Source of the DNA: an uncultured archaeon
GTDB taxonomy: Archaea > Nanohalarchaeota > Nanosalinia > Nanosalinales > Nanohalalkaliarchaeaceae
Reading direction: 5' to 3'
Assembly: GCA_964617945.1 (NCBI GenBank)
Contig: CAZTXA010000001.1
Coordinates: 1-60,846 of the forward strand
Length of the DNA stretch: 60,846 bases
Part shown: piece after piece, positions 12,554-57,405 of the stretch
Layout of the letters: each line of letters opens with the position of its first letter
How positions within the stretch are numbered: the first letter of the stretch is position 1
The notes under the pieces: model-generated
Told to the model about the DNA's origin: nothing
The model's input: the letters and a program-made list of their open reading frames with translations, nothing else
Databases searched by the model: none
Program-made: the position numbers and the translations under genes

Positions 12554-12557
12554 TACC

Positions 12558-37129: not shown

Positions 37130-37163
37130 AGGAATTTATCTACGCCACAATAGTTAAATACGT

Positions 37164-38894
37164 TCAGTACTGGGGCTCGATAACCTCTCTCCGCCGTCTG
37201 CGCCAGTAGAGGAGGATGAGGAGCAGGACGATCCCGCCGGCGCCGATGACAGCCCATTTCTCGCGTTGCCCGAGCTCTGTGAACTGTGCCCTCGTGTCTG
37301 ATGCCCACTGTGCCGCGCCCCCGATGACCGGGTTCTTGAGCGCGGGGTTCTCGACGGCGAGCACCTCGACCTGTGCCTCGGTGAGCACGGTGTCCTTGTT
37401 CGAAACAGTTATCGTCCCCGTGTACCGCCCGGTCTCGTCCGGGACGGCGCGGACGACTGCCGTGGTCGATCCCCCCGCCCTGAGGTTCACGGTACCGGGG
37501 GACTGGATCGATAGATCCTCGAACCCGTCGACACTGATATCGAACTGCCGTGCCGCGAGCCGGTCGTTGTCGATACGGACCTGGAAGACGCCGGCCTGCC
37601 CCTGCGTCAGGGTGAGCTGGTCAGGGAAGACCTCTGTCGAGATACCGGTATCAACGGTCTGGACCGTCCGCTCCGCGGACGCTGACGCTGCGCCTGCGGA
37701 CGCCTCGACCCTGACGGTGTGGTCGCCGCTGGACGAGACGGAGGTGGAGAAACAGTGTTCCGTCTCCCTGGCGACCGAGACGGTTTCAGTCTTCCTGAGC
37801 TGGCCGTCGACGAGGAGCCGGAGCGTGACCTCGCCGCTCTCCGACCGGCTGACGCGGCTGCAGACATCGAAGATGCTGCCGGCCCCGGCCCGCTCTGGGA
37901 CGGAGACCTCACTGATATCGAGCTCCGGCTCCACCGTCAGGAACTTCTCCACTTCGGCCGTGCCGACCCGCAGCGTCACCCGATGCACGCCAGCCCGTTC
38001 AGGGATGATGGTATGGGTATAGTGGCCGCCCTCGTCAGAGAACACCGGCGCCTCGAACCGCCCCCCGTAGTAGAGGTCGGCACGGGTGTTCCGCCTGCTC
38101 AATATCCCGGAGACGGTGACGTGGTCGCCGACCGTGACCTCGCTCTGTCGCAGGTTCATCGTGGCATGGACCCGGGACACGACCAGGGTGGCGTTCATAC
38201 TGTCCCTGTCCCGGAACGTTGACGCCTCGATCCTGATGGTCTCCCGGTCCCGGGTGGCGGCAGGGACGGAGAGTTCGATCGGCACTGTCCGCGTGGACGT
38301 TCCGTCGAGACGGCCGACCTCTTCAGTCATCGTCCTCCCGAACGCGTCGACGGCGACATGGAGCTGGCTCATGTCCCTGTCTCCTGTATTCCGGACAGTG
38401 ACATCGACTGTCGCGGTCTGGCCAGCCATCACCGTTGCAGGCATCGACACAGACTTGATACGGAGATCACCCTCCTCTGGTTCGACGATGGTACCGCTCT
38501 CCCCGACATCGATGGACACGTTCCGCTGCTCCCCGCCGATGACGCGGCCGTCCCGGTCACGCGACTGGACCGAGAGCGTGACTTCGTGCGTCCCCTCCCG
38601 GTCGGTCGGCGTGTCGAGGTAGAAGATAACCCGGTCCTCCTCGCCAGGGTCCAGCCCCCAGAGGTTCTCCTCCTTCACCTGGTTGAACCCCTCGGCCTTC
38701 ACCTCCATGTGGTACGCGTCCTCGTCGTCCGTGTTCTTCACGGTCGCGGCGATACGCGCGGTGTCACCGCTCTCAACGAAATCAGGCGCCTCTATATCGA
38801 GGATGTCGACGTTGGCATCGGCCGCCGCTGTACCGCTGAATATCACGGAGAGGCAGAACAGGGTGAGAAGGGCCCGGTGCCGCACCGTAGCCAT
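37164..38894 (-). CDS. secreted, C-terminally TM-anchored multi-domain (CARDB-like) surface protein
   Basis: Signal peptide ...LFCLSVIFSGTAAADA. Repeats such as IAATVKNTDDEDAYHMEV and VDVTVRNTGDRDMSQLHV. TM helix WAVIGAGGIVLLLILLYW followed by RRRRR. Confidence 0.65.
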   Translation of the reverse strand: MATVRHRALLTLFCLSVIFSGTAAADANVDILDIEAPDFVESGDTARIAATVKNTDDEDAYHMEVKAEGFNQVKEENLWGLDPGEEDRVIFYLDTPTDREGTHEVTLSVQSRDRDGRVIGGEQRNVSIDVGESGTIVEPEEGDLRIKSVSMPATVMAGQTATVDVTVRNTGDRDMSQLHVAVDAFGRTMTEEVGRLDGTSTRTVPIELSVPAATRDRETIRIEASTFRDRDSMNATLVVSRVHATMNLRQSEVTVGDHVTVSGILSRRNTRADLYYGGRFEAPVFSDEGGHYTHTIIPERAGVHRVTLRVGTAEVEKFLTVEPELDISEVSVPERAGAGSIFDVCSRVSRSESGEVTLRLLVDGQLRKTETVSVARETEHCFSTSVSSSGDHTVRVEASAGAASASAERTVQTVDTGISTEVFPDQLTLTQGQAGVFQVRIDNDRLAARQFDISVDGFEDLSIQSPGTVNLRAGGSTTAVVRAVPDETGRYTGTITVSNKDTVLTEAQVEVLAVENPALKNPVIGGAAQWASDTRAQFTELGQREKWAVIGAGGIVLLLILLYWRRRRREVIEPQY

Positions 38895-42060: not shown

Positions 42061-42669
42061 ATGGAGCTGCCCCAGACGAAGCGGCCGTCACCACTGTCAC
42101 CGCACTTCTTCTACAAGTACGTGAAGTTCGGTGTGCCGGCACTCCTCATCGCGGTCGCTGTCCTCGTCCTTACTGCGTACGGGTACCTCGACGTCCTCCC
42201 GTTCAACCCGCTGTACCTGCTCGTACTGACCCTCCCGTTCCTGGGGAAGGCGCTGCAGGCGGAGATCAACCGTCACACCTACGAGTACGAGTTCAACTCC
42301 GAACGGGTGAAGGTGCGGACCGGGCGGCACACCATCCAGCAGGAGGATGTGCTGTACGAGGAGATTACAGACATCTCCTCCGAGAGCCCGCCGTGGGAGC
42401 AGCTGGTGGATGTGGGCGACCTCCACCTGCACTTGACCGGGACGGACAAAGTGGTGACGATGCTGGGGCTGCGACACCCGGACCGGTACGAGAACCTGAT
42501 GCTCGGCCGGGAATCCCATGAAGAGACCGTGACGGACAAGGAGAGTATCGAGACCGAGCTGGTCGACCTTGAACGCCAGTACGAGAACGGGGAGATCGGG
42601 CGGGCGGAGTACGAACGCCGGTACTACTACCTGCAGGGCAAACTGGACGTGCTGGAGGCGCAGGAATGA
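42061..42669 (+). CDS. membrane protein with a bPH_2 (YdbS/YdbT-like PH) domain and a C-terminal SHOCT-like helix
   Basis: Two N-terminal TM helices. YEFNSERVKVRTGRHTIQQEDVLYEEITDIS...VGDLHLHLTG. C-terminal LERQYENGEIGRAEYERRYYYLQGKL. Confidence 0.65.
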   Translation: MELPQTKRPSPLSPHFFYKYVKFGVPALLIAVAVLVLTAYGYLDVLPFNPLYLLVLTLPFLGKALQAEINRHTYEYEFNSERVKVRTGRHTIQQEDVLYEEITDISSESPPWEQLVDVGDLHLHLTGTDKVVTMLGLRHPDRYENLMLGRESHEETVTDKESIETELVDLERQYENGEIGRAEYERRYYYLQGKLDVLEAQE

Positions 42670-42956: not shown

Positions 42957-44687
42957 CTACGCGAGTCGCTGATGGACGTCCGGGAGCGGGTCGACGGTCT
43001 GGCCGTCAACCTCGACCTGGTAGTTGCCGGTGACGATGTCGCTCACCCGTTCGTAGGTGGCTTCATCGTTCAGGTCGCTGTTCTCCCGTGCGTCGACGAT
43101 CTCCTGCGTGTAGGTCGCTACAGCCTCAACGTCGTCGGAGAGGCTGAGCTGGTCGCCTGCACTGAACCGGGCGTCCTGGTGGAGGTACCCGGCGTCCAGC
43201 GCCTCGTTGAGGTGCTGGGTGTACTCGGCGACCGTGTCTGAACGGTCCGTGACCTCTGCAGCGAAGGAGTCGAGTCGCTCGTGGTCGGCCAGCTGGTCTG
43301 GCTGGTCGACGCTGAGCGCGTCGTCGTACTGGTCGACCTCCGCCACAACTTCGTGGAACCGGTTCGCCGCACTGACGATGTCGTCCAGCATGCCGCCGGA
43401 GCTGAACCCGTCGCCGAGCCGGTCCATCTTCGCGTCCAGTGCGTCGTACCACTGGTCAAGCCGGTCTGTCGAAGCGGTCTCCGGCTTGTACTGGTCTTCT
43501 GTGGAGAATCCCTGGTTCTTCTCCATCCGGAGATCGACAGAGATCTCGTGAAGCAGGCCGTTCTGGCCGAGCATCTCGGCCATCTCCTGCTGGACATCAT
43601 GCAGTCGGTCGGCAAGCTCGATCTCTTCCTCGTAGAAGCTGTCGATGGTCTCTGCCGTCTGCTCCACGGTCTGGTCCATGTCCGTCAGGAGCCGGTCGTA
43701 GTCCCGCAGCAGTCGCCGATCCTGGCTCTCGATCTCGTGCTTCTTCGCCTCTGTCGGCGCCATCTGCGCTTCCCGGACGGTCTGCTGGATTTCGTCCTCG
43801 GTCGCAGCAGCCACATCGTCGGCGAGCTCGTACACGGTCGCACGGTGCTCGATGATGGAGGTGACGTCCCCGTCATCGGGGTCGACGATGCTCCCAAAGT
43901 TTTCATGCGTGTGGATCGCGTCCAGGACGAGCCGGTGCTCGTACTGTCCTTCCGGTACTTCACCGAGGCTCCGGCCCGACCCGGCTTCGTCCGCAAGGTC
44001 AGCGGTCGTCGTGTCGTCCGCCGATAGCCGGGGGACAACAGAGCGTTCCAGGAGCGTGGCGTCGAAGTCGGTCTCTTCGTCGTAGTGGTTGTCGAGGAAC
44101 CGGTCCTCGTCCATCGCGTCGTCTTCACTGTATGTCCGGTTGGTGTCCCTGTTCAGGGTCTCTCGGGCGTAGTCGTTGCGCGCCTCTTCGTGCATTCCGG
44201 ACTGGAGTCCTTCGACGTTCGCGTCCTGCACGATGTCCGCGACCGTCTTCTGCTGGTCAAAGAACGCGGCCGTTCCTGCGTCGTCGCCGTCACCGCCGAC
44301 GTCGTCGACAGCCACTTCTGTCGTGTGCCGGACCAGTTCGACACGTTCCTCTGTGCTCATCTCGTCGACGATCTCTTCCGCCTTGTCGAGCGGCGGGACT
44401 TCCTGGTCGGGCGTGCTGTCGTCTGTCGGAGGTGTCACAGGCTCGTCAGGGGTATCACCGTCGCCCTCACCTGTCTCTCCAGAGCCGTGTGCCTCTGCAG
44501 CAGAAGCGACATCGTCGTCGCGGGCCTCTTCATGTGTCCGTTCCTCGTCGGACGGTGACTCTCCGCTTCCGTCCGTCATAAGGGGTTTATCGCTGTCAGC
44601 ATCCGTGATCGGGGCGGATGCATCCGTTTCGGTCTGTTTGTTCCGGGAGTTTCCTAGCTGTTCAATCCAGTTACGCCAGTTAGGCAT
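42957..44687 (-). CDS. hyper-acidic soluble protein with coiled-coil segments (uncharacterised)
   Basis: Start ATG 44687 (MPNWRNWIEQLG). No TM helix or signal peptide. D/E content is very high. It is divergent from the 44862 gene. Confidence 0.6.
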   Translation of the reverse strand: MPNWRNWIEQLGNSRNKQTETDASAPITDADSDKPLMTDGSGESPSDEERTHEEARDDDVASAAEAHGSGETGEGDGDTPDEPVTPPTDDSTPDQEVPPLDKAEEIVDEMSTEERVELVRHTTEVAVDDVGGDGDDAGTAAFFDQQKTVADIVQDANVEGLQSGMHEEARNDYARETLNRDTNRTYSEDDAMDEDRFLDNHYDEETDFDATLLERSVVPRLSADDTTTADLADEAGSGRSLGEVPEGQYEHRLVLDAIHTHENFGSIVDPDDGDVTSIIEHRATVYELADDVAAATEDEIQQTVREAQMAPTEAKKHEIESQDRRLLRDYDRLLTDMDQTVEQTAETIDSFYEEEIELADRLHDVQQEMAEMLGQNGLLHEISVDLRMEKNQGFSTEDQYKPETASTDRLDQWYDALDAKMDRLGDGFSSGGMLDDIVSAANRFHEVVAEVDQYDDALSVDQPDQLADHERLDSFAAEVTDRSDTVAEYTQHLNEALDAGYLHQDARFSAGDQLSLSDDVEAVATYTQEIVDARENSDLNDEATYERVSDIVTGNYQVEVDGQTVDPLPDVHQRLA

Positions 44688-44835
44688 GATTTCACCATGA
44701 AGTGACAACAGGAACAAACATTTTTAAAATCGTCGGCAGTACCGCAAATATGGCGAATATAGGGCCTATAGTTGCCCGCCGGGGCCGGTTGATGCGGCCG
44801 GGGTCGCCCGCCCCACCACAACCTTTTTATATTGT

Positions 44836-44856
44836 TACTGTTAAATGATAACAGTA
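44836..44856. repeat. inverted repeat TACTGTTA-aatga-TAACAGTA between the TATA box and the start of the 44862 gene (candidate operator)
   Basis: Read directly from the sequence. TATA TTTATAT at 44826-44832, ATG at 44862. Confidence 0.4.
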
Positions 44857-44861
44857 GATTG

Positions 44862-46616
44862 ATGAGTCGACAATACGATACCAACCTGCTATCGTTCGGC
44901 CTCATGATGAAGGATCTCCGGGGGGAGAGCCGGGCGCTGGACCAGTACGACGATCCGCTGGAGCAGGCGGCCGAACTCGTCTCGGAGTACGGAGAGGGAG
45001 ATATCGGGGAGCGTGCCGATGAGATATATGAGGACCTGGTGGACCAGGAGGCATACCCGCACGACAGCGATACACTGCAGGACGCGTTCTGGATCGTCCA
45101 CGGACTCACCGTACAGGACCGCGGGCCGGACGAGATCCCGGAACTCGGTTCACAGGCATACGACGAGTTTGTACAGGATGTATTAGATGAGGCAGCGGCC
45201 CTGGGCCCGTCCGACGCGGAGCAGCGCTGGGGGTACCAGGTCAGGGGCGTCGATCTCGGGGCTGTTGAGGCGGTGCTCCGGTATGTCGGTGATACAGAGA
45301 GCGACCTGGAACCGCTCCAGCAGGACATCCAGGATATAGGCGATACTATCCGGGAGCACGAGGGATACGAGGACTGGCTCTATGACACGCTGGACGACCT
45401 TCTCGGCGGCGAGGAACCGCCGACAGGCCCTGATACGGGGGGTGACGGACCGGCTGGCCCCCATGCAGAGGCGACAGGGATCGAAGAGCTGAACCTGTAC
45501 GGCGGCAGCGTCCCTGATGAACTCAGTGATCTTCTCGACGACGATGCCACGATAGCGGTCGAAGACGGCCGGCTTTACATCGAAGGGATACCGGACTCGG
45601 TAGATATCAGCGGGTTTGACGATATCGAATCCCTCCTTGAGGCGCTGGAAGACGCAGATTTTGGCGCTGAAGCCACTGGCGGGGATGCGGCCGCGTCCAA
45701 CGTCGACGTCGACGGAACGGACACGACGCCGATCGGCGAGGGCCTCGCGGCGATAGCCGAGGCACTCAGCGAGGACGAGGACGGAGACGGGGACGACGAT
45801 GGTGACGGTGAGGACGGTCCCGACGTCCGCGAACTGGATGTCGATTTCGACATCGTGACGACAGAGTACGATCCGGCTGGGTGGTGGGACAGGCTCGGAT
45901 ACCGCCTGGGTGGAGAAGAACAGGAAGCATACGTCAAAGTGACAGGCCGGGACAGTGCAGAATATGTCAACGAGTACCTTACAGACCTCGATCAGACCTT
46001 CGATGCGGCCGTGTTCACGGAATATCGGACGCTCGGTGACGACGAAGATTCGGGGGAGAAGATTCCAGACTTCGACAGTATCAAGGAAGAACTCGATGTG
46101 GAACTGGATATGGACCCGGACGAGCGGAAAGTATTCGGGAACTCGATTTTCATGCCGATGGACTTCGTCGGCTCGCGCGCAGCCGGTAACAGGGTCTCGC
46201 TCGATCCGGGAGAATCGCTGTGGGTCGAGGGATGGATAGACGGGGATACACGCGCCGCCGCTGCCGGGTCGCGGTACGACGAGATCGAGATTCCACGGCT
46301 TGCCGGTTCAGGAGATTCGGAAGGGTACTACGACACCTGGAAGGATCTCGCGGTCGACGGTGCGAAGGCCGCCCGTTCGACGATGCACAAGATCGATACG
46401 CACCCGGTTATTGCTGGGAAGAACCCGGGCGTGTGGGGCGAGAACGCGCCGGAAGAGGACGGTACGCCGCCTACCATGGCGCAGCGGTGGGCGCGCAGCA
46501 AGAAGGATGAGCCCCAACAGCTGCGTGCGGCGGCGAATTTCGGGATGGAGCATCTCCTGAGTGGAACTGCTGCCGGTGTTTTGGGCCACGTGATAGGACA
46601 GGGCACCGGGAATTAG
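44862..46616 (+). CDS. hyper-acidic soluble protein (uncharacterised), sharing two motifs with the next gene
   Basis: Start ATG 44862 (the track's TTG 44832 lies on the TATA box). Shared motifs VTGRDSAEYVNEYLTDL...AAVFTEY and AGKNPGVWGEN. Poly-acidic EDEDGDGDDDGDGEDGPD. Confidence 0.6.
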   Translation: MSRQYDTNLLSFGLMMKDLRGESRALDQYDDPLEQAAELVSEYGEGDIGERADEIYEDLVDQEAYPHDSDTLQDAFWIVHGLTVQDRGPDEIPELGSQAYDEFVQDVLDEAAALGPSDAEQRWGYQVRGVDLGAVEAVLRYVGDTESDLEPLQQDIQDIGDTIREHEGYEDWLYDTLDDLLGGEEPPTGPDTGGDGPAGPHAEATGIEELNLYGGSVPDELSDLLDDDATIAVEDGRLYIEGIPDSVDISGFDDIESLLEALEDADFGAEATGGDAAASNVDVDGTDTTPIGEGLAAIAEALSEDEDGDGDDDGDGEDGPDVRELDVDFDIVTTEYDPAGWWDRLGYRLGGEEQEAYVKVTGRDSAEYVNEYLTDLDQTFDAAVFTEYRTLGDDEDSGEKIPDFDSIKEELDVELDMDPDERKVFGNSIFMPMDFVGSRAAGNRVSLDPGESLWVEGWIDGDTRAAAAGSRYDEIEIPRLAGSGDSEGYYDTWKDLAVDGAKAARSTMHKIDTHPVIAGKNPGVWGENAPEEDGTPPTMAQRWARSKKDEPQQLRAAANFGMEHLLSGTAAGVLGHVIGQGTGN

Positions 46617-46709
46617 CAGCGAGCTGCCCAGATTTGGCGGGTTCTACCGGTAATCGCTCAACCCCAAACACAAAACTTTATAAACAATGAATGTAATTGT
46701 TCCTTATAG

Positions 46710-47351
46710 GTGGTAACAAGAATGTCGGATGATGAGATGGATGTCGCGATGAAGATCCTCGAACCGTCGGAAGACGGTCGTATGGGGAAGAATCCGGGAG
46801 TGAAAGACCTTCTTCTCGGTGCAGCCGATGCGATGACTGGCGGTGCCGGAAGGGATACCGAAGTCTACAAGTTCACCGGCGACGATGCAGAACGATACGT
46901 CTCAGAGTACCTCGACCAGTTCGAGGTGGCGGTATACGAACAGACCGGTGAACAGAAGATGCCGGACGGGACAGTTATTCCAGACTACGATCCCGCTCAG
47001 GGCGCGGTGACAACGTTCAATACGGGGAAGGGAGACGTTACAGTCCGGGATTCTAGCAACGTGTACGTCACGCCAGAAACCTCGGTCGGAGATGAGGTCC
47101 AGGGCGGTACGTACGCGGTCCAAGTAACCACGACGGAGGATCCTGATATTGGAGACTACGAGGGTCCTGGCAAGCGGGGGGCCAGTATAGATGTCGGCGA
47201 AGACGGCGTCTCAGGTGTCGTGAAGGAGTTCATCAGCCGCAACGTTTCCGGCGCCAAGGTGTACGACAAGGCGGTCGGGGACGGTGTCGGCGACAACGAC
47301 ATGGGATCCGACCTCAGGCCGATTTATGAACGGTTAGCGGCTGACCGGTAG
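46710..47351 (+). CDS. acidic soluble protein, partial paralogue of the 44862 gene
   Basis: MGKNPGVKDLL and FTGDDAERYVSEYLDQFEVAVYEQ match motifs in the preceding protein. GTG 46710 lies 26-33 nt from TATA TTTATAAA. ATG 46722 is an alternative start. Confidence 0.6.
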   Translation: MVTRMSDDEMDVAMKILEPSEDGRMGKNPGVKDLLLGAADAMTGGAGRDTEVYKFTGDDAERYVSEYLDQFEVAVYEQTGEQKMPDGTVIPDYDPAQGAVTTFNTGKGDVTVRDSSNVYVTPETSVGDEVQGGTYAVQVTTTEDPDIGDYEGPGKRGASIDVGEDGVSGVVKEFISRNVSGAKVYDKAVGDGVGDNDMGSDLRPIYERLAADR

Positions 47352-47396
47352 AGAATCTCTCAAGGTTTAAATAGAGGTAGGAGTAAATCGGTCTGT

Positions 47397-48266
47397 ATGG
47401 GCGTCTCCGGACGTAGGAACGTGGCGAAGGCGGCGGCGGTAACGGCGGTCACTGCCTCGTTTTCCGTGCTAGCTGCTGCACAGTACGGTGGCGGGGGCCG
47501 GTTCGCCCAGATGTTAAACACGTATTTCCTCCCGCAGGGGGCGCAGGTAACAGGGCTGTCTGGACTTATTTTCAGCGTCTTCATCCCGTTCGCGATTGTC
47601 GCCATCCTCCTGGTGGCCGGGCTACAGACCATCGAAGTGTTCAACCGGCGCCAGGCATCCCTGCTCGGCGTTCTTATCGCGCTGTTCATCGTCCCCTCTG
47701 GCGGGTACAAGATAATCTCTGAGACGTTACTGGCGTTGTTCGGACTGGGTCAGACAGGTGTTTCCGCGCCCGGCCTTACAGGCACTCCGCTCGATCCACT
47801 CCTCGAGTCCCCGCTGTGGATGGGAATCCTGGCCTACTTCCTCTCTGTCTACGCGCTAAACAACTTCGTGACGGGTGCGGAGACCGGTTTCACCTTACGA
47901 GAGCACCTCGCCGGTGGTACCGTCGCCGTGCTCGTATACGTGGGACTCTCAGGGTCACAGACCTTCCTCATACTTGCGGTGTTCTGGGGGCTCATCCTCA
48001 TATTCGGCTGGAAGATGTTCAAACGCGGGACCGGTATGGGCGGTGGGACCGGGTTCCTCATCGCGATATTCGGTATTTTCCTGCTTGGTATCGGTGTGAC
48101 GCGAATGGAGATCCTCCCTGAGGAAATCCAGGCGATGGGAAGCACCGTGACCGGATATATATCGGGAGCGTTCTGGGTGCTGCTGATATTGGCTGTTGTG
48201 GCCGGGGCGGTAGCACTCGGGGTGAAGGCATATCAGGAAGGCCTGCTTCAAAAACTGATTTCGTAG
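47397..48266 (+). CDS. polytopic membrane protein, member 1 of a four-gene tandem paralogous family (uncharacterised)
   Basis: About 8 TM helices. The N-terminal helix region (LSGLIFSVFIPFAIVAILLVAGLQT) aligns with the family core. TATA TTTAAAT at 47366-47372. Confidence 0.6.
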   Translation: MGVSGRRNVAKAAAVTAVTASFSVLAAAQYGGGGRFAQMLNTYFLPQGAQVTGLSGLIFSVFIPFAIVAILLVAGLQTIEVFNRRQASLLGVLIALFIVPSGGYKIISETLLALFGLGQTGVSAPGLTGTPLDPLLESPLWMGILAYFLSVYALNNFVTGAETGFTLREHLAGGTVAVLVYVGLSGSQTFLILAVFWGLILIFGWKMFKRGTGMGGGTGFLIAIFGIFLLGIGVTRMEILPEEIQAMGSTVTGYISGAFWVLLILAVVAGAVALGVKAYQEGLLQKLIS

Positions 48267-48337
48267 GTGAGGGAGTGAGGTGATACCTGATTGTCAGTGG
48301 GATTGAGGCGTGGATCGGTGTTGCCGAGCGGACAGGA

Positions 48338-48805
48338 GTGTACGGCTACGTACTCCCGTTCCTGGTGACGTTCCTGATCATCTATGGTGTGATGGAGAAG
48401 GTGGAGCCGTTCGGCGGCGGACAGAGCAGGCTACACGCCCTGTTCGCCTCACTCGTCGGCCTGTTCCTGCTCGCATTCGCTCCTGGCGGCGTCATCGGGG
48501 CGTTCTTCTCCAACTTTTTCGGCGCCGTTGCAGTCGTGATGGTCGGGTTAGTGCTGGTGATGGTCGTATACGCGCTCGTATTTGGACAGCCAACTGCGGA
48601 CTCGGCCTTTGTCAAGGGGCTGGGGGTCATCGGTGCGACCGCTGCCGCAGTCCTGTTCCTCATCTGGGGCGGGTTCTCGCTGGTATTCCCGGAGGACGTT
48701 TCGCTATACGGCGGGCTTGGGGGGTACCTTGACGTCGTTGTCGTGCTCGGCCTCCTCGCGCTGCTCGGCTGGGCACTGTTCGGCGGCGGGAACGCGGGAG
48801 AGTAG
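48338..48805 (+). CDS. polytopic membrane protein, family member 2 (start probably upstream at a non-AUG codon)
   Basis: YGYVLPFLVTFLIIYGVMEKV aligns with FFEFGLPILFFMAVYYGLLMKT and FFKYGAPFLLMFALVFGLTTKL. See the finding on 48277-48340. Confidence 0.6.
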   Translation: MYGYVLPFLVTFLIIYGVMEKVEPFGGGQSRLHALFASLVGLFLLAFAPGGVIGAFFSNFFGAVAVVMVGLVLVMVVYALVFGQPTADSAFVKGLGVIGATAAAVLFLIWGGFSLVFPEDVSLYGGLGGYLDVVVVLGLLALLGWALFGGGNAGE

Positions 48806-48869
48806 CGGGAGTAACTACGGCAGCGGAGAAACTTATTTAAACAGGGCGGACGGTAAACGGCAATAGATA

Positions 48870-49502
48870 ATGGATATAACCCAGAAGCTGGTCGGTGCCG
48901 CTGCATCCGGGTTCCTGATGGTGCAGGTCGCTGCAGCCCAGAACCAGGGGACGATCGGCTCCGGCATCCAGTCGCTCTGGGATATCGGGTTCTTCAAGTA
49001 CGGCGCCCCGTTCCTCCTCATGTTCGCCCTTGTATTCGGTCTCACTACCAAGTTATCGATATTCGAGAACGACCAGGTCAGCGCGATCGTCGCAGTGACC
49101 GCGGGACTGTTCGTCGACGCCGCAATCCTGCAGGGATACGTGAGCGGGCCGACACTGGAGGTATTCCTGTTCCAGTTCTTCGGCGCGTTCGCAGTCATCG
49201 CGTCAGGCCTGCTCGTCGTCGTGATGGCGGCCGGGCTCGGAGGATATGAAGGAGAGTGGGCGTTCGGTGATAACGCTAAACGCGCGTTCTTCGTGCTGGG
49301 CGGTCTCGCAGCGGTGACCGCGTTCATCGGCTGGGGCGGCCTCCAGTGGCTTGAAATCTCTGCCGCACAGTCCGAGGTAGGAAACCTCGGCTTCTTCAGT
49401 AATGACCTGTTCATCCTGCTCGTCGTTGTCGTCCTTATCGTCGGTCTCGTCTGGTGGGTGACCGGTGGCGAGGAAGGCGGCGGTGGCGAAGAAGGCGAAT
49501 AG
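48870..49502 (+). CDS. polytopic membrane protein, family member 3
   Basis: SGIQSLWDIGFFKYGAPFLLMFALVFGLTTKLSIFEND. G/E-rich C-terminus. TATA TTTAAA lies 29-34 nt upstream. Confidence 0.6.
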   Translation: MDITQKLVGAAASGFLMVQVAAAQNQGTIGSGIQSLWDIGFFKYGAPFLLMFALVFGLTTKLSIFENDQVSAIVAVTAGLFVDAAILQGYVSGPTLEVFLFQFFGAFAVIASGLLVVVMAAGLGGYEGEWAFGDNAKRAFFVLGGLAAVTAFIGWGGLQWLEISAAQSEVGNLGFFSNDLFILLVVVVLIVGLVWWVTGGEEGGGGEEGE

Positions 49503-49548
49503 AACCGCCACATATAAAAGCAGATAGTATTTAATTCGTTGTAGGACG

Positions 49549-50049
49549 ATGGCAACGCCTGGATTCGAGTTATTGTTCCAGAACCTGCAGTCCATCGGGT
49601 TCTTCGAGTTCGGCCTCCCTATCCTGTTCTTCATGGCCGTGTACTACGGCCTGCTGATGAAGACCGGGACGATCAGCGACGAAGAATCCGTCAACGGGAC
49701 CGCAGCCATCGCACTCGCGTTCCTGACCACGCTCGGTATCTATACGTTCATCCCGTTCAGCATCTTCCCACAGTTCTTCGCCGCACTCGCCGTTCTGGTC
49801 GTCCTCGTCCTCGGCGGTATGATGCTGATGGGGATGCTGGGCGTCGAGGTAGGCGGTGAGATGGACGAGCGGGCGCAGCGGTTGATGGTCATCGGTGTCG
49901 TTGCCCTCCTGATAATCGTCGGCGTCCCACTGTTCGGGTCCATGGACATCGGGTTCGAGCTGACGGACGACTTCATGAATTTCATCCTGACGATCGCCAC
50001 GATCGCGGTCATCGGCTACGTCATCCGGTCGATGGGCGGCGGAGAATAA
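49549..50049 (+). CDS. polytopic membrane protein, family member 4
   Basis: FQNLQSIGFFEFGLPILFFMAVYYGLLMKTGTISDEE. Four to five TM helices. Confidence 0.6.
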   Translation: MATPGFELLFQNLQSIGFFEFGLPILFFMAVYYGLLMKTGTISDEESVNGTAAIALAFLTTLGIYTFIPFSIFPQFFAALAVLVVLVLGGMMLMGMLGVEVGGEMDERAQRLMVIGVVALLIIVGVPLFGSMDIGFELTDDFMNFILTIATIAVIGYVIRSMGGGE

Positions 50050-50050
50050 G

Positions 50051-50809
50051 CTACTCTTCCTGCATCTCCTTGACCAGTGCCGACAGTTCACGCGTATTCT
50101 CGACAAGCGACGGCAGCACCTGTTCGAACGCCTTCTCCATCCCCCCGATCCGGGACTGTGACTCGGCCAGGTAGTCCTCGATCTCCTCCACCTTCTGCAC
50201 GACTTCCTGCTGGTCCTCGTCCTCCCTGATCTCCAGCTCCTCCACACGGTCCTCCAGATCTGCGACCCGGCCCTGCAGGCTATCAAGTTCGCTGTACACG
50301 GTATTGAACTCGTCCTCCACGTCCGTGAAATGCTCGGAGACGATCGTCTCGATCAGCTCTTCCTCCTCCATCGACACGCCCGACGGTTCGCCGAACCCGG
50401 AGTCATCGTCCTCGGGGGGTTCCTCCGGTTCCGCCGGCTCCGGTTCCTGCTGCGGTTGCTGCGGGGCGGGTTGCTCCACCGGTGCAGCGGGTGACTGTTC
50501 CTCCTGGGGGGCAGGTGCCTGCGCGGTGGACTGGCCGCCCGTCGCTCCTGGAGCGGGGGACTGCCCTGTGTTCCGCGGCGCCGCCTGCTGGCCGCCAGAC
50601 TGTCCACGTTCAACGGTCCGTTCCTGGACGGCCTGGTTGATCGCCTCGTTGATCTCACCGTAGGAATACCCGCGGTCCCGCAGCTGTTCCGTTATCTCGC
50701 TCTCCGCGTAGCCGTCGTCGCTTAACCGCCGGACCTCGTCCACGGGCGGCCGGCCACGGCCCTCCGCCTCTCCCTCTTCACCGCCCCGGAACCGGTCGAG
50801 AACACCCAT
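50051..50809 (-). CDS. three-part protein: small helical N-domain, Q/P-rich linker, C-terminal coiled coil (uncharacterised)
   Basis: VDEVRRLSDDGYAESEITEQLRDRGYSYGEINEAINQAV. Linker ...QAPAPQEEQSPAAPVEQPAPQQPQQEPEPAEPEEPPEDDD. Coiled coil LDSLQGRVADLEDRVEELE.... Confidence 0.55.
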   Translation of the reverse strand: MGVLDRFRGGEEGEAEGRGRPPVDEVRRLSDDGYAESEITEQLRDRGYSYGEINEAINQAVQERTVERGQSGGQQAAPRNTGQSPAPGATGGQSTAQAPAPQEEQSPAAPVEQPAPQQPQQEPEPAEPEEPPEDDDSGFGEPSGVSMEEEELIETIVSEHFTDVEDEFNTVYSELDSLQGRVADLEDRVEELEIREDEDQQEVVQKVEEIEDYLAESQSRIGGMEKAFEQVLPSLVENTRELSALVKEMQEE

Positions 50810-51246
50810 TATTCGTCCTCCTCCAGTTCGTCAAGCTTGCGTTCGATCATTCGATTTACCTCGTACTTTGACACGCCGCCGGATCCTTGTTCCTCGAGCA
50901 TATCCTCAACCTCGCTCTCCGTCACGAACGAACTGCTGACGGGGTCCATCAGGTTGAGGTAGTTCTCGATTTCGCTGATTTCCCGTTTTGTCACGGTTTT
51001 ACGGAGGTTGCGCTGCAGGTTCTTGATATCGACCTCGAGGTTGGCCGCCCGGTCCTGCAGGCTTTCAATATTACTTTCAACATCCGAGACCTCGCTATTT
51101 AACGCTTTCGTCCGTTCGAGCAGCGTGTCCTCGACCGTGTTCACCCGTGCGTTGAGGTTCCGGACGTTCTCCTCCAGGTCACGGATCCGCCGGTTGAACT
51201 CCTTCATCCGCTGGACGACCTCGGTCATCGTCTCCTGCTGCGCCAT
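50809..51246 (-). CDS. coiled-coil protein (uncharacterised), first gene of a two-gene operon divergent from the pilus ATPase
   Basis: Start ATG 51246 (MAQQETMTEVVQRMKEFNRRIRDLEENVRNLNARVNTVEDTLLE...). TAATG overlap with the downstream gene. Confidence 0.55.
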   Translation of the reverse strand: MAQQETMTEVVQRMKEFNRRIRDLEENVRNLNARVNTVEDTLLERTKALNSEVSDVESNIESLQDRAANLEVDIKNLQRNLRKTVTKREISEIENYLNLMDPVSSSFVTESEVEDMLEEQGSGGVSKYEVNRMIERKLDELEEDE

Positions 51247-51349
51247 GTGCCACCGTTGTGGAGCCTTACTTATATTGTTCCCACCGCTGTCTCCACGGAA
51301 ACCGGCGCCACGGCAAAAGTATAATAGGTCGGCAGCCGAGAACCGTGGC

Positions 51350-53623
51350 ATGGCGGTCGAGGATCTTGACACGTGGGAGTACGAGTACGACGACGAGTCC
51401 GGGACGATCCGGGTCAACGCGCTGGGAAGCGTGTACGGGCCGTCGGTCGAGGACTATCCCGAAGTGATGGCCCGCGTCATCGATATCTTGCGTGAAGTCG
51501 GTGGGGCGTCCTCCATCGTCCTGTCCGCCTCCCGTGAATACGAGTACCCGGAGGAGCAGACCGAGCTGCTGCAGGAGGTGGCGCAGGCCATCCAGGACAT
51601 CACCCGCGGCGGGTACCTCGCGAAGGAGAACCTGCGGGCGAAGAAATGCGAGAAGTACTACCCGGTGTGGCGGCAGGACCTGCAGGAACTTGTCACCAAC
51701 GACCTCCGGCAGGACCCGGTGGGCGCGTACGTCAAGCTCCGCCGTGAAATCCGGCACAAGAAAGAGGAGATGGAGGACGCGTACCCGGAGACGAAACGGT
51801 GCTACAAGTTCTACATCCATGACATCCTCCAGCCACTGAAACAGCGCCTCGAGGAGACGCAGATGGTGCAGCAGGCGCAGGAGCACGTGACAGGGTACCA
51901 TGTCGGCGACCGTGCGCTCTACAGGGAGATGTTCCACCCGCTGGTCCGGCCGAACTTCATGCTTACCAAGTACATGTCGCTGCCGCCGGAGCAGGGCGAG
52001 GAGATCGACCGGTACACCATCGGGAACGACGTGGAAGTGGAGATATACCGGGTGCCGGACGAGGCCCAGCGCATCTACCACATGACCCCGCCAGAATTCG
52101 ACCTGTCCGAGGAGAAATACACGATACTGGACGCGGCACGCCGGTACATGGGCGAGCACCGGCCGGCATCGGAAGAATTTGCGAAGCCGGAGCGGATGCG
52201 GGACGTGTTCGCCAACATCGGCCGCGACATGCTGGTCGATATCGCGGACCAGATGAACACGTCGCTCTCCTCGGAAGAACTGGACAACCTCACCGACATC
52301 CTGACACGGTACACCGCCGGGCTGGGCGTCCTCGAACTGCTGTTCGCGGATACGCGGATTCAGGACGTGTACGTGAACTCGCCGGTCGGGATGGAACCGG
52401 TATTCATCTTCCATGCGGACTACGAGGAGTGCCGCACCAACCTCGTGCCGACGCGGGAGGACGCGGAGTCGTGGGCGACACGGTTCCGGATACAGAGCGG
52501 GCGGCCGCTGGACGAGGCGAACCCGGTCCTGGATACGGAGATGGAGGTGCCCGGCGGCCGTGCACGTGTGGCGGTGATCCAGGAGAACCTGTCGCCGGAA
52601 GGCCTCGGGTTCGCGTTCCGCCGGCACCGAGACGAGCCGTGGACCTACCCCTTGTTTATCGACAACGACTATTTCAACCCGCTCGCCGCCGCGTTGATGA
52701 GCTTCCTGATCGACGGCGGCCGGACCATGCTCATCTCCGGGACGCGCTCCGCGGGAAAGACCTCGCTGATGGGTGCGTCCCTCCTCGAACTGATGAAGAA
52801 GACACGGCTGGTCACGGTCGAGGACACGCTCGAACTCCCTGTTCCCGCCCTGCAGGACATCGGGTACAACGCGGAGCGGATGAAGAGCCGGTCAGTCATC
52901 ACCCAGGTCGAGTCAGAGCTGCCCGCGGACGAGGCCATCAGGACATCGCTCCGGCTGGGCGATTCCGCACTCGTGCTGGGCGAGGTCCGGAGCGACGAGG
53001 CAAAAGCATTGTACGAGGCGATGCGTATCGGGGCCGTCGCCAACTTTGTCGGCGGTACGATCCACGGCGAGGACGCGTACGCGGTGTTCGACAGGGTGGT
53101 GAACGATCTCGGTGTACCGGCGACCTCGTTCAAGGCGACGGACATCATCGTCTCCGCCAACCGGCTGCGTAGTCCCTCTGGGACAGACCGGTTCCGCCGT
53201 GTGACCGGTATCACCGAGGTCCGGAAGGACTGGACCGAGGACCCGGCGCGGGAGAACGGCTTCGTGGACCTGATGCGGTACGACGCGGAGCAGGATAAAC
53301 TGGTGCCGACCGAGACCCTGCTGAACGGTGAGTCCGTCATCCTCAACAGGATCGCGGACAACGTCCGGGAGTGGAAGAACGACTGGGACGCGGTATGGGA
53401 GAACATCCAGCTCCGGAAACGCGTCAAGCAGCGGCAGGTCGACCTTGCCAGCCACGGCGACCACGTCCTTGAGGCACAGTTCACCTCGAAGGCGAACGAG
53501 AAATTCCATACCATCTCCGACCAGGTGAAGGAGGAGTACGGCGAGCTTGACCCGGAACGCATCTACGCACGGTGGAACGAGTGGGCGGAGCGAACCGCCA
53601 AGCAGGGACTTGAGGAGCGGTAA
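51350..53623 (+). CDS. pilB: type IV pilus/archaellum-superfamily secretion ATPase (PilB/FlaI/GspE family) with a long N-terminal domain
   Basis: Walker A ISGTRSAGKTSL, Asp box VTVEDTLEL, Walker B/His box ALVLGEVRSDEA...GGTIHG. Start ATG 51350. TATA TATAATA at 51320-51326. Confidence 0.85.
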   Translation: MAVEDLDTWEYEYDDESGTIRVNALGSVYGPSVEDYPEVMARVIDILREVGGASSIVLSASREYEYPEEQTELLQEVAQAIQDITRGGYLAKENLRAKKCEKYYPVWRQDLQELVTNDLRQDPVGAYVKLRREIRHKKEEMEDAYPETKRCYKFYIHDILQPLKQRLEETQMVQQAQEHVTGYHVGDRALYREMFHPLVRPNFMLTKYMSLPPEQGEEIDRYTIGNDVEVEIYRVPDEAQRIYHMTPPEFDLSEEKYTILDAARRYMGEHRPASEEFAKPERMRDVFANIGRDMLVDIADQMNTSLSSEELDNLTDILTRYTAGLGVLELLFADTRIQDVYVNSPVGMEPVFIFHADYEECRTNLVPTREDAESWATRFRIQSGRPLDEANPVLDTEMEVPGGRARVAVIQENLSPEGLGFAFRRHRDEPWTYPLFIDNDYFNPLAAALMSFLIDGGRTMLISGTRSAGKTSLMGASLLELMKKTRLVTVEDTLELPVPALQDIGYNAERMKSRSVITQVESELPADEAIRTSLRLGDSALVLGEVRSDEAKALYEAMRIGAVANFVGGTIHGEDAYAVFDRVVNDLGVPATSFKATDIIVSANRLRSPSGTDRFRRVTGITEVRKDWTEDPARENGFVDLMRYDAEQDKLVPTETLLNGESVILNRIADNVREWKNDWDAVWENIQLRKRVKQRQVDLASHGDHVLEAQFTSKANEKFHTISDQVKEEYGELDPERIYARWNEWAERTAKQGLEER

Positions 53624-53626: not shown

Positions 53627-55759
53627 ATGTTCGACTGGTTCGGTGACGACCACGACGAGGAGGGGGAGGAACGGATGTCGGAGGAACGGAAGGAGGAGAT
53701 CAACGACATCCTGGACAGCTACGAGCAACGGTTTGACGCAGAGATCGGTGGTGAGACGGGCCGGGTCGCGTCCCGCGACTACCAGGCGTACCAGGAGGCT
53801 GAAGAGGAGGCGCGGAAGACGACATGGTACGAGAAACTGGTTAACAGGATTTCGTTCTTCCGGTACGAGTTCGACGACCTGGAGGAGGAGCACCGGGACG
53901 CGCTCCGCCTGATCGACTACGACCTCGAGCCTCATCAGATCGTCCCTGCAGCGCTTGTCGTGGCCGCAGTCACTGCCGTGATGGTGACGCCTGTCCTGCT
54001 TGCGGAACTCCCGACGTTGTTCAAGATATTCGCGGTCTCGGTGCCGCTCGGCATGTTCTACTATATCGCCAAGTATCCGCAGCTGAAGGCCCGGCAGAAG
54101 GTTGTGCGGTCGTCGGAGAACCTCATACTCGCAATACTTTACATGGTCATATACATGCGTTCGACGCCGAACCTTGAGGGCGCCCTCATCTTCGCGTCCC
54201 GCCATCTTGAGGGACCTGTGTCAAAGGACCTGAAGCTGTTACTGTGGCGGCTGGACGTCCGGGAATATACGACGGTCCGGGAAGCGCTCGCCGACTACAT
54301 CAACCGGTGGCGGCCCTACAACCAGGGATTCGTGCAGGCGCTTAACCTGATAAAATCGGCGACAGCCGAGGCTAAAAAGTCGAAACGGAACGCCGTGCTG
54401 GCCGAGGCGATTGACACACTTCTCGAGGATACACAGGACAGGATGGACGAGTTCGCCCACCAGCTGAAGATGCCGGTCATGGCGCTGTACGCCATCGGCA
54501 TCCTCCTCCCGGTCCTCGCTATCATCCTGTTCCCGATGATTGCAGCGTTCATGGGCGGCGGCGGGATGGCGGTATACCTTGCGCTGCTGTACAATATCAT
54601 CATCCCTGTGACCGTGTACGTCCTGATGAAAAACCTGTTGATTAGCCGACCGCTGTCGCTCTCCTCCCAGACAGGGCAGCTCATGGAGACCCATCCTGGC
54701 ATGGTGACGGTGTCGGTGCTGGACCGGGATTTCAGGTTCAATGTCGCGTTCATCAGCATCCCGCTGTTCATTGTACTCGCCGCATGGCCGCTCCCACACT
54801 ACTACCAGGCGATCATAGCCGGCAGCGGAATACCGATCGCGCCGGACACGGTCACGTTCTTCCGGGAACTCCTCCTGGTACTGGCGGTCTCGTTCCCGAT
54901 CGGTGTCCACCTCGTCGGCGGGTACCGGAGCGTCGTCCGGAAACAGGAACAGCTCCAGTCGATGGAGGACGAGTTCCCGGAGGTTCTGTTTGAACTGGCG
55001 AACGCACTGGATCGGGGGAAACCAGTAGAGCTTGCGGTGGAGGACGTTGCACGGGAGGAGAAACGGCTCGACATATCGGACATGTTCGCCGCGCTGTCCC
55101 ACAACATGCGGGAACGCGGCATGACGTTCCATGACGCGCTGTTCGACGCGGAATACGGGGCGATGAGGCAGTACCCGTCCAAGCTGATGCAGACAGTCAT
55201 GGAGGTGCTGTCCGAGTCCACCGGGAAAGGCCCGGCGGTGGCGGCCAGTGCGGCGTCAAGTATCTCGGAATACCTGCAGCGGATCAAGGAGACGCAGAAA
55301 CGGCTGGAGGAGCTTATCGAGGACACCCTGTCATCCGTCCAGTTCCTCGGATACATCCTCGCACCGGTAATCGCGGGTGTAGCGGTCGGCCTCGGAGGGG
55401 TGATATCGCTCGCGTTCGACACCATCCAGCAGGTCGCCGGCGCCGCACAGCCGGGGAATGCGACGGGGAACGCGACAACACCCGGCGGCGGGTTCGGCGG
55501 CGATACGAGTCTCGTCGGGATCTTCGAGATTCACGATGCGATCCCGCCAGGCATCCTGCAGCTCGTTGTCGGGCTGTACCTCATCCAGATATCGTTCATC
55601 ATCGGGACGATGTACGTCCGGCTCGAGGAGGGGCGGAACCCGGCGAAGCGGAACGTGATGATAGGAAAGCTGCTGCTCGTGGCGATACCCTTATATACAC
55701 TGGTAACGCTGATTTTGATCGTGGTATTCGGCAGCATGATCCAGGGGATCGGCGGATGA
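53627..55759 (+). CDS. pilC: type IV pilus platform membrane protein (PilC/TadC/FlaJ family)
   Basis: 710 aa with two blocks of TM helices separated by soluble helical domains (a duplicated T2SSF-like organisation). It starts 3 nt after the ATPase stop. Confidence 0.7.
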   Translation: MFDWFGDDHDEEGEERMSEERKEEINDILDSYEQRFDAEIGGETGRVASRDYQAYQEAEEEARKTTWYEKLVNRISFFRYEFDDLEEEHRDALRLIDYDLEPHQIVPAALVVAAVTAVMVTPVLLAELPTLFKIFAVSVPLGMFYYIAKYPQLKARQKVVRSSENLILAILYMVIYMRSTPNLEGALIFASRHLEGPVSKDLKLLLWRLDVREYTTVREALADYINRWRPYNQGFVQALNLIKSATAEAKKSKRNAVLAEAIDTLLEDTQDRMDEFAHQLKMPVMALYAIGILLPVLAIILFPMIAAFMGGGGMAVYLALLYNIIIPVTVYVLMKNLLISRPLSLSSQTGQLMETHPGMVTVSVLDRDFRFNVAFISIPLFIVLAAWPLPHYYQAIIAGSGIPIAPDTVTFFRELLLVLAVSFPIGVHLVGGYRSVVRKQEQLQSMEDEFPEVLFELANALDRGKPVELAVEDVAREEKRLDISDMFAALSHNMRERGMTFHDALFDAEYGAMRQYPSKLMQTVMEVLSESTGKGPAVAASAASSISEYLQRIKETQKRLEELIEDTLSSVQFLGYILAPVIAGVAVGLGGVISLAFDTIQQVAGAAQPGNATGNATTPGGGFGGDTSLVGIFEIHDAIPPGILQLVVGLYLIQISFIIGTMYVRLEEGRNPAKRNVMIGKLLLVAIPLYTLVTLILIVVFGSMIQGIGG

Positions 55760-55884: not shown

Positions 55885-56079
55885 ATGAGACGGAAAGGTG
55901 TTGATCTGTCGCTCCGGAGCATGGTTCTCATCGTCCTCGCAGGCGTAGCTTCATTCATCTTCCTAGCCCTGTTCCTCCCCGTGATACAGGGACAGGGACT
56001 GCAGGAGACGCTTATTACGGTGGTAAACACAGTTACGCCAGGCATGGCACAGCACATCCCGAACTTCTTCGGAGGGTGA
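55885..56079 (+). CDS. prepilin-like protein (64 aa)
   Basis: MRRKG/VDLSLRSMVLIVLAGVASFIFLALFL. Confidence 0.55.
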   Translation: MRRKGVDLSLRSMVLIVLAGVASFIFLALFLPVIQGQGLQETLITVVNTVTPGMAQHIPNFFGG

Positions 56080-56702: not shown

Positions 56703-56795
56703 CACCGGGCACGGCTGCCGATCCACGGGATAACTGTATTTAAGACAGGAACCCGGAACGTACTGCGTGGACAGGACAACGGGGCTGATGGTACG

Positions 56796-57362: not shown

Positions 57363-57405
57363 CGCGCGAGAATATTTAAGAGACGAACCGAAACGTGGTG
57401 GTAGG

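Follow-up and report, generated by a model that had tools for sequence, protein, structure and literature searches.

The complete 60,846-bp contig CAZTXA010000001.1 (assembly GCA_964617945.1; about 62% G+C), analysed here in its entirety as the window, comes from an uncultured archaeon whose nearest relatives are metagenome-assembled genomes (MAGs) labelled Candidatus Nanohaloarchaea. Next to the gene for a pilus-type secretion ATPase it carries a block of nine genes (42957-51246) that encode three acidic soluble proteins (Acid1 to Acid3), four polytopic membrane proteins (Mem1 to Mem4) and two coiled-coil proteins (CC1 and CC2). The membrane genes lie on the plus strand with gaps of 45-71 bp between them: Mem1 (47397-48266; 289 amino acids, aa), which has a signal-peptide-like N-terminus, is followed by the three members of a five-helix membrane family, namely Mem2 (48338-48805; 155 aa), Mem3 (48870-49502; 210 aa), which has an additional signal-peptide-like N-terminal extension and a GGEEGGGGEEGE tail, and Mem4 (49549-50049; 166 aa), the most conserved paralogue. 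CC1 (50051-50809; 252 aa) and CC2 (50809-51246; 145 aa) lie on the minus strand, such that Mem4 and CC1 are convergent with 1 bp separating their stop codons, and the CC2 stop overlaps the CC1 start by one base (TAATG). A spacer of 103 bp (51247-51349) then divides CC2 from the divergent, plus-strand gene of a FlaI/TadA/CpaF-like ATPase of the secretion superfamily (51350-53623; 757 aa, with an N-terminal extension of about 220 residues); the two AT-rich boxes read from this spacer, CTTATATTG and AAAGTATAATAGG, may act as promoters. The ATPase gene is followed on the same strand by that of a PilC/TadC-like platform protein (53627-55759; 710 aa, about nine transmembrane helices) and by three candidate pilin-like genes (56076-56702, 56796-57362 and 57552-58247).

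An earlier reading of this DNA, made from the letters alone (the sequence-only reading), had marked out the same nine open reading frames (ORFs); all were found, no more than 30 nt from where it had placed them, and the NCBI gene calls on the contig agree in product length (576 aa, 584 aa and the 757-aa ATPase). Its failure to recognise a known domain in any of the nine was borne out by scans against Pfam and NCBIfam, in which none scored above threshold and the coiled-coil proteins gave only generic coiled-coil matches. The overlapping TAATG and the 103-bp spacer likewise agree with its description of a translationally coupled coiled-coil pair that faces the promoter of the ATPase.

The ATPase is the anchor gene of the conserved neighbourhood to which the block belongs. 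It matches the Pfam family T2SSE at 3.4e-12 (46.2 bits, above the cutoff of 24.9) and the NCBIfam families FlaI (4.9e-36) and TadA (1.2e-30), both under their equivalog cutoffs and FlaI far under, while its orthologues in other DPANN phyla are recovered with E values typically between 1e-200 and 1e-285. Orthologues of the platform protein follow the ATPase in 38 loci, and the position and size of the protein fit its assignment. The three pilin-like products begin with RAGISF, RRQGIRF and QRKGFTF, each then continuing into a hydrophobic helix, and it is by this N-terminal pattern that they are put forward as candidate pilins of the locus; the first two are paralogous (phmmer, 6e-32), and none of the three has a Pfam match. 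The product of the gene directly after them (58311-59987, plus strand; 558 aa) contains a C2 domain (PF00168, E = 1.4e-8), a calcium- or lipid-binding domain that is mostly eukaryotic and is unusual in an archaeon.

Judged by their sequences, Mem2, Mem3 and Mem4 are certainly paralogues. Mem3 matches Mem4 at E = 6e-6, a profile of 80 family sequences matches Mem2, Mem3 and Mem4 at E values of 4e-28, 1e-41 and 4e-36 respectively, and each of the three has the family motif, five transmembrane helices and a charged or glycine-rich C-terminal tail. Mem1 is more distant. It is not matched by the hidden Markov model (HMM) of the family; hhalign relates it to the family with E = 0.047 and a probability of 1% where shallow profiles are used, and with a probability of 65% (E = 6.2e-5) over residues 58-118, the first to third transmembrane helices, where the profiles are deeper. 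It may represent an enlarged and diverged fourth member. Orthologues of Mem1 were found in three close nanohaloarchaeal relatives only (loci L003, L006 and L009; 36% identity to that of L006), an exact-sequence look-up returned no record, and a 322-aa protein of the nanohaloarchaeal locus L021 was considered as an orthologue and dropped after alignment. The sequence-only reading had spoken of four paralogous membrane proteins; four polytopic proteins with glycine- and glutamate-rich tails are indeed present, but clear paralogy extends to Mem2, Mem3 and Mem4 only and is marginal for Mem1.

The extent of the family depends on how it is sought. Word-indexed searches returned 3 and then 16 relatives, all nanohaloarchaeal apart from one non-halophile, and close homologues of Mem3 in such a search came from Nanohaloarchaea MAGs only. 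The family is nevertheless not tiny, because an exhaustive profile search of 1.84 billion representative sequences overturned these counts with 2,035 members at E<=1e-3 and 596 at E<=1e-10, nearly all of them 160-220 aa long and matched end to end, and many lysine-rich and non-halophilic. The loci examined carry MAG labels of Woesearchaeota, Pacearchaeota, Nanoarchaeota/Nanoarchaeia, Aenigmatarchaeota, Nanohalarchaeota, Parvarchaeota, Acidifodinimicrobium and Diapherotrites. Members share a signature in the first transmembrane helix, G-[FVI]-[FY]-x-[FY]-x-LP-[FW]-LL-x-FA-[IV]-x-[YF]-G-x-L-x-K, together with N..[IV]A...AF in the second helix, FFxxFFG in the third and a short tail rich in glycine, glutamate and lysine. 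An AlphaFold2 model of Mem4 computed from 80 sequences (predicted local distance difference test score, pLDDT, 82.9) has an N-terminal amphipathic helix and five transmembrane helices. Across the family, lysine and arginine number 2.3-2.9 per protein in each of loops 1 and 3 and the tail, as against 0.15-0.56 in the N-terminus and loops 2 and 4, and the proteins therefore have their N-termini outside and their C-termini inside, a topology that fits the signal-peptide-like extensions of Mem3 and Mem1. Foldseek searches with the Mem4 model found nothing below E = 1 in the PDB or BFVD. The only family matched recurrently is DUF2070 (PF09843), which 5 of 80 Mem-family members match at E<=0.01 (best 2e-6), always through their N-terminal membrane region, over profile positions of approximately 32-185, and always below the gathering cutoff of 30 bits; the Mem proteins of the window have no DUF2070 match themselves. 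DUF2070 is a predicted archaeal membrane protein of about 560 aa and of unknown function.

Arrays of these genes are the rule: over 77 loci, 45 have three copies, 18 have two, eight have one and six have four to six. Within three-member arrays the best match in another genome lies at the same array position 613, 555 and 433 times for the three positions, compared with 81-273 times off-position, and because best matches keep their position in this way the triplication must be old and the copies not interchangeable; the paralogues may accordingly assemble as a hetero-oligomer. In one non-halophilic, lysine-rich locus (L007, JGI 3300045950), three Mem paralogues at 241-1954 lie 620 bp from the C-terminal part of a diphthine synthase gene (2575-2772), with one gene of 185 aa between them. 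Proximity of the Mem array to diphthine synthase is also old, because it is seen in that locus, in this window and in Aenigmatarchaeota.

Linkage of the array to the pilus genes was examined by a scan of one genome per species, seeded with 10 sequences that share the motif PFLLxFA, so that the resulting 77 loci, which span seven or more DPANN lineages, are biased to that motif; all loci were translated and then searched with the family HMM and with the proteins of the window. In 43 of the 77 loci an orthologue of the ATPase is no further than 5.3 kb from the Mem array, at a median distance of 1,264 bp and within 3 kb in 41, and CC1 or CC2 is present in 46. Among informative loci the fraction with the ATPase is 43 of 52, since only nine of the 34 loci that lack it have at least 6 kb of flanking sequence on both sides. 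By simple arithmetic, a single-copy gene should fall within 5 kb of another in about 1% of cases in a 1-Mb genome. More telling than the number of loci is the survival of the neighbourhood through rearrangement, for it is kept in at least three different gene orders. In Woesearchaeota, Pacearchaeota, Nanoarchaeota and Nanohaloarchaeota, including this window, the order is Mem(+), CC1(-), CC2(-), ATPase(+), PilC(+); in four Aenigmatarchaeota (L013, L014, L017 and L020) it is PilC(-), ATPase(-), CC2(+), CC1(+) and three Mem genes (+) with gaps of 37-48 bp, where the coiled-coil and membrane genes look like one operon; and in L039 and L044 it is Mem(+), ATPase(-). Clustering of the neighbouring ORFs gave five widespread families, Mem, CC1, ATPase, CC2 and PilC, and besides these a PRC-barrel protein, an M50-like peptidase and housekeeping genes. 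The synteny comparison with pilB and pilC that the sequence-only reading had proposed as a test thus comes out mostly in favour of linkage.

CC1 consists of two short helical 'GYSxxEI' repeats, a linker rich in proline and glutamine, and a C-terminal coiled coil that closes with a conserved LEKAF..LP.L.E..R.L motif; CC2 opens as a coiled coil at RIRxLEE and ends with a conserved E.Y.DL.DP..FVT.EEVE motif. Neither sequence contains a transmembrane segment or a signal peptide. Orthologues of CC1 adjoin the Mem array in 49 loci, and those of CC2 were found in 36-46. The top named matches of the CC1 family profile in the PDB are to the coiled coil of reovirus sigma-1 (6GAJ, E = 1.7e-5; 6GAO, 1.1e-4), and CC1 also matches FlaC_arch (PF05377) weakly (E = 0.003, 18.4 bits, under the Pfam cutoff of 27.8).

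Part of this neighbourhood has been described. Hamm et al. 2024 (PMC11291902) reported two loci with CpaF, TadC and coiled-coil proteins (CCPs) that are conserved in cluster-2 DPANN, predicted that the CCPs resemble reovirus sigma-1 (6GAO), found them by proteomics in Ca. Nanohaloarchaeum antarcticus, and took them for proteins that might serve in attachment and that recall viral fibres or nucleoporins. Those loci have in common with the present one their lineages (Nanohalo-, Woese-, Pace-, Nano- and Aenigmarchaeota), a core of secretion ATPase, TadC-like platform and adjoining coiled-coil proteins, and sigma-1 6GAO as the top structural analogue, which was recovered here for CC1 too. The window resembles their Locus 2, because it is without the Mpg, GroEL and GatE neighbours of Locus 1. 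The system can be placed as a variant among the archaeal type IV filament machines, of the type represented by the published CCP loci of DPANN, and the sigma-1 match is taken as a sign that CC1 may belong with the published CCPs, of which NAR1_01690 and NAR1_03220 are examples. The two accounts differ in that the published coiled-coil proteins are taken as attachment proteins, whereas CC1 and CC2, having no export signal, are read here as a putative cytoplasmic scaffold. Neither the five-helix paralogues nor the PRC-barrel gene near them nor the acidic cassette was found mentioned in the main text, figure legend and part of the supplements of that paper (PMC11291902), in the dark-matter survey of Makarova et al. 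(PMC6393860), in a 2026 preprint on the reclassification of archaeal type IV filaments (10.64898/2026.04.22.720090), or in papers on DPANN contact structures seen by cryo-tomography; the literature searched being incomplete, this is absence of evidence only. The Mem family, of all accessory families here the most widespread, appears to be undescribed.

Two better-known machines offer points of comparison. In the archaellum, the cytoplasmic face of the motor is scaffolded by FlaX in Crenarchaeota and by ArlC/D/E, with their FlaC_arch coiled coil, in Euryarchaeota; the present locus is similar in that coiled-coil genes stand beside a FlaI-type ATPase and a polytopic platform, and in the weak FlaC_arch match of CC1, but FlaX is membrane-anchored while CC1 and CC2 are not, and nothing in the archaellum corresponds to the three five-helix paralogues. 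Neither FlaH, FlaF, FlaG nor archaellin was detected among the proteins of the window that were scanned against Pfam and NCBIfam. The second machine is the bacterial type IVa pilus, in which the genes of the alignment sub-complex PilM/PilN/PilO accompany those of the ATPase and platform, and their products connect the motor in the cytoplasm with the cell envelope. The likeness to the Mem and coiled-coil proteins is here one of functional analogy only, between accessory membrane and coiled-coil components: PilN and PilO are single-pass proteins with periplasmic domains, whereas the Mem proteins have five helices and almost no soluble part, and searches of Pfam, NCBIfam and Foldseek found no similarity of sequence or fold between Mem proteins and PilM, PilN or PilO.

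With confidence somewhat better than even, we favour a reading in which the region encodes one of the copies of a type IV filament-like apparatus found throughout DPANN, with a hetero-oligomeric membrane sub-complex and a cytoplasmic coiled-coil scaffold, and beside it a fast-evolving, co-oriented cassette; the periphery alone would be particular to this lineage. Mem2, Mem3, Mem4, CC1 and CC2 are probably parts of the adjoining pilus-type ATPase machine. Its conserved core would comprise the FlaI/TadA-like ATPase, the PilC/TadC-like platform, CC1, CC2 and an array of usually three Mem paralogues, the last forming a hetero-oligomeric sub-complex in the membrane around or beside the platform protein, with their N-termini facing outward and their charged tails facing the cytoplasm. 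CC1 and CC2 would form a cytoplasmic scaffold that joins the Mem tails to the ATPase hexamer at its N-terminal extension of some 220 residues, a candidate docking site, and the scaffold would be comparable, by role only, to the FlaX or ArlCDE rings of the archaellum motor or to PilMNO of bacterial pili. ATP hydrolysis would then power the building of a filament or conduit at the cell surface, with the products of the downstream pilin-like genes (56076-58247) as its subunits, and in a host-dependent nano-archaeon the site of assembly would plausibly be the site of contact with the host. The divergent Acid1, together with Acid2 and Acid3, would be a species-specific cassette inserted between the housekeeping flank and this core.

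The sequence-only reading had taken all nine proteins for possible accessory or assembly components, or secreted cargo, of the adjacent pilus-like system. This holds for the Mem and coiled-coil proteins to the extent that they are linked to the ATPase and PilC-like genes, but the acidic proteins are not conserved partners; and its suggestion that the module is a lineage-specific elaboration is right for the periphery only, for the Mem and coiled-coil core is DPANN-wide (2,035 representatives), and the part made up of coiled-coil proteins, ATPase and TadC was already published (PMC11291902).

Several observations weigh against the apparatus as we reconstruct it. Physical association, stoichiometry and function of the Mem, coiled-coil and ATPase machine are things we infer from gene neighbourhood, and the count of 43 in 77 loci cannot be read as a probability because the genomes are related and are not independent samples. 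The platform protein falls below the Pfam cutoff for T2SSF (E = 3.6e-4; 20.9 bits against 25.2), no prepilin peptidase of the PibD/FlaK type was seen in the roughly 40 ORFs that were scanned on this single contig of a MAG, and the match of CC1 to sigma-1 is a likeness of generic (trimeric) coiled coils. The nine loci that have no ATPase orthologue despite flanks of 6 kb or more to either side also count here, as do the Mem arrays of two Micrarchaeota/Parvarchaeota-type loci (L078 and L081) and one of Aenigmatarchaeota (L072), which stand among housekeeping genes and have no homologues of the window's ATPase, platform or coiled-coil proteins in the 8-10 kb flanking them on each side, and the lone Mem copy of a Nanohalalkaliarchaeum (L025). 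Judging by these loci, the family can exist apart from the locus described here; the genomes in question may nevertheless carry the ATPase at some other place. In L006, pilin-like genes and the gene of a 1,175-aa protein come after the coiled-coil pair, and the ATPase is not within the 10 kb examined. Finally, in 33 loci (among them L022, L030 and L032) a PRC-barrel gene of about 96 codons (PF05239, E = 1e-5 to 6e-11) stands directly upstream of the Mem array, on the same strand and at a median distance of 35 bp, where it is itself preceded by a divergent gene for an M50-like peptidase. With regard to L006, which is the closest long relative of the window, the pair is followed at 11744-20510 (minus strand) by five small proteins, three of which have N-termini resembling class III signals (RRGITVS, KGQLPLRF and RKGITLQ), and then by the 1,175-aa protein, which is cysteine-rich, and other large proteins; this is a different arrangement of the same locus.

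The PRC-barrel neighbour points to the main rival explanation, according to which the Mem array and the PRC-barrel gene, perhaps with the coiled-coil pair, constitute a cell-envelope or division module that stands beside the pilus genes by inherited order and does not work with the ATPase. PRC-barrel domains are tied to archaeal cell division: CdpB1-3 are PRC-barrel proteins that act in FtsZ-based division, and CdvA combines a PRC barrel with a coiled coil (10.1101/2023.03.28.534520). The three arrays in housekeeping context without nearby pilus-locus homologues would also be expected of such a module, and the array keeps not only diphthine synthase but also DUF357 as a neighbour in Aenigmatarchaeota, in L007 and in this window. 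Against it, the neighbourhood of ATPase and coiled-coil genes survives inversions and reshuffling across phyla, as inherited order alone rarely does, and the CC2-CC1-Mem genes of Aenigmatarchaeota are co-directional and closely spaced. The link to the PRC-barrel gene is not obligatory either, the homologue in this window lying at 16194-16523 (minus strand), 31.8 kb from the Mem array, and the study of PRC-barrel division proteins reports no such neighbourhood (10.1101/2023.03.28.534520). On balance we consider a division or envelope module unlikely.

The acidic proteins require separate treatment. Acid1 (42957-44687, minus strand; 576 aa), a peripheral and non-conserved soluble protein whose N-terminal third is of low complexity and rich in D, E, T and G, and Acid2 (44862-46616, plus strand; 584 aa) diverge from an AT-rich spacer of 174 bp (44688-44861), as the sequence-only reading had correctly described for a pair of about 580 aa; the spacer contains TATA-like boxes in both directions, TTTTTAAAA near 44720 and TTTTTATATT near 44826, which may act as promoters. 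Acid2 is the first gene of a run that continues through Acid3 (46710-47351, plus strand; 213 aa) and Mem1 to Mem4; all six, co-oriented on the plus strand and 45-93 bp apart, could plausibly form one operon, and Acid2 and Acid3 are thus probably co-transcribed with the Mem genes. All three had been singled out as hyper-acidic, with aspartate and glutamate making up 25.9% of Acid1, 24.7% of Acid2 and 20.2% of Acid3. The genes are real, but the label is weakened because other soluble ORFs of the contig are nearly as acidic, at approximately 14-24% with one at 31%, and nearly all have isoelectric points of 4.0-4.9; the acidity of Acid1 to Acid3 is mostly the salt-in proteome signature of a halophile, barely above background, and no special property.

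Nor do the three proteins form a family. Acid1 and Acid2 have no similarity in pairwise comparison (best E = 2). Acid2 and Acid3 share a single gapped BLAST match of 55 residues (E = 4e-4), the best 10-mer of which is reached by a fraction of 0.145 of composition-matched shuffles and is therefore within chance, and the hexamer GKNPGV is not collinear with that match, so that of the two Acid2 motifs said to be repeated in Acid3 there remains one weak match. A shared short motif (GKNPGV/PGVK) among the acidic proteins and their positional counterparts is not above shuffles. In a search of 5.8 billion proteins Acid2 found only itself, its AlphaFold2 model from the single sequence is unusable (pLDDT 39.9), and none of the three matches any ORF of 86 loci. 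The layout of L006 is the same as that of the window, with one large and one small soluble gene, then Mem1 and then the Mem array, and identity between the two is 51-65% in the flanks, 31-56% in the Mem genes, 67% in CC1 and 45% in CC2. Acid1 has no similarity to the 400-aa minus-strand protein at its position in L006, nor Acid2 to the 587-aa plus-strand protein there or to its counterpart in L003, nor Acid3 to the 147-aa plus-strand counterpart in L006 or to that in L003, and pairwise BLAST of all three against their positional counterparts in L003 and L006 gave no match. Elsewhere, the equivalent locus of the nanohaloarchaeon L021 has lipoprotein-like and membrane genes in place of the acidic cassette, in loci of Aenigmatarchaeota nothing separates the Mem array from DUF357/diphthine synthase, and the cassette is not at the other DPANN loci compared. 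G+C content at third codon positions (GC3) is 0.66-0.70 in the acidic genes, at the low end for the contig, with Acid3 the lowest of the block at 0.66. As far as sequence comparison can tell, Acid1 to Acid3 are a lineage-specific insertion, extremely fast-evolving or repeatedly replaced while its layout is preserved, and not conserved parts of a machine; they may act as a specificity factor, as a substrate or in something unrelated.

A more elaborate role for them, as cargo, effectors or host-specificity factors of the adjoining machine whose divergence reflects an arms race with the host, strikes us as rather improbable. It would account for the co-orientation and close spacing of Acid2 and Acid3 with the Mem genes, for the fact that L006 has a size-matched cassette in the corresponding place although its sequences are not similar at all, and for the orphan status of Acid2. 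Yet no signal peptide, class III signal or transmembrane segment is recognisable in any of the three, and type IV filament systems are not known for the export of large cytoplasmic proteins; the cassette is missing from L021 and all other DPANN loci, the short motifs shared are at chance level, and rapid divergence is equally expected of disordered, non-essential proteins; the GC3 of the three genes is at the low end for the contig.

Physical contact with a host is a necessity for DPANN archaea, and little is known of the genes for the structures that establish it. A bolder extension, to which we give as little credence as to cargo, is that the ATPase, platform, CC1, CC2 and three Mem proteins may be the so-far gene-less host-contact apparatus of DPANN archaea, that is, the nanotube, cytoplasmic bridge or attachment organelle seen by cryo-tomography, in which case the Mem hetero-oligomer would be a membrane conduit or collar and the hypervariable acidic proteins host-specific factors delivered or displayed through it.

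Least probable of all is that the Mem proteins are a small-solute transporter or channel, homo- or hetero-oligomeric, which works independently of filament assembly and has only its regulation in common with surface structures: tandem paralogous small multi-helix subunits are typical of some transporters, the best, insignificant PDB fold matches of the Mem4 model are to EmrE (E = 1.5) and sub-threshold Pfam matches to permease-like families are scattered through the results, but there is no significant match of fold or sequence to any transporter family, no conserved charged residue within a helix is evident (the invariant residues being G, P, F, L and one K that ends the first transmembrane helix), and the tight linkage to the coiled-coil proteins and the ATPase is left unexplained. 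Readings of the region as a provirus, plasmid or defence island were set aside, since the flanks are ordinary chromosomal genes (P-type ATPase, eRF1, acyl-CoA synthetase, diphthine synthase, DUF357 and metallophosphatase), of which the last three have conserved synteny.

Other parts of the contig merit brief record. Immediately to the left of the module, a plus-strand gene (42061-42669) encodes a bPH_2 (bacterial-PH) membrane protein, the C-terminal stretch of which has a sub-threshold match to GvpG (E = 1.8e-6; 28.4 bits against a cutoff of 30.6) that is probably a coiled-coil artefact. Three large consecutive proteins encoded at 34243-38894 (minus strand) are probably cell-surface proteins: those at 35540-37129 and 37164-38894 carry CARDB and/or FixG_C Ig-like domains, that at 34243-35529 has no Pfam match, and in the 576-aa protein of this block a hydrophobic leader at the N-terminus is matched at the C-terminus by a hydrophobic anchor with RRRRR after it. 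A second uncharacterised block at 21994-28992 (plus strand) contains six co-oriented ORFs; none of the five scanned (27140-28087 being left out) has a Pfam match above threshold, and one, a coiled coil, matches GAS below threshold.

It was the acidic proteins that drew attention to this region at first, and they have proved to be the least informative part of the locus. Its significance lies in a membrane family that has thousands of members and no Pfam or NCBIfam entry, and that is tied to one particular pilus-type ATPase, the platform protein of that ATPase and two coiled-coil proteins across most DPANN phyla. With it, the parts list of the published CCP locus grows from three kinds of gene to a testable machine of five to seven components, and so provides concrete targets for experiment in cultivated Nanohaloarchaeota or Nanobdellota.

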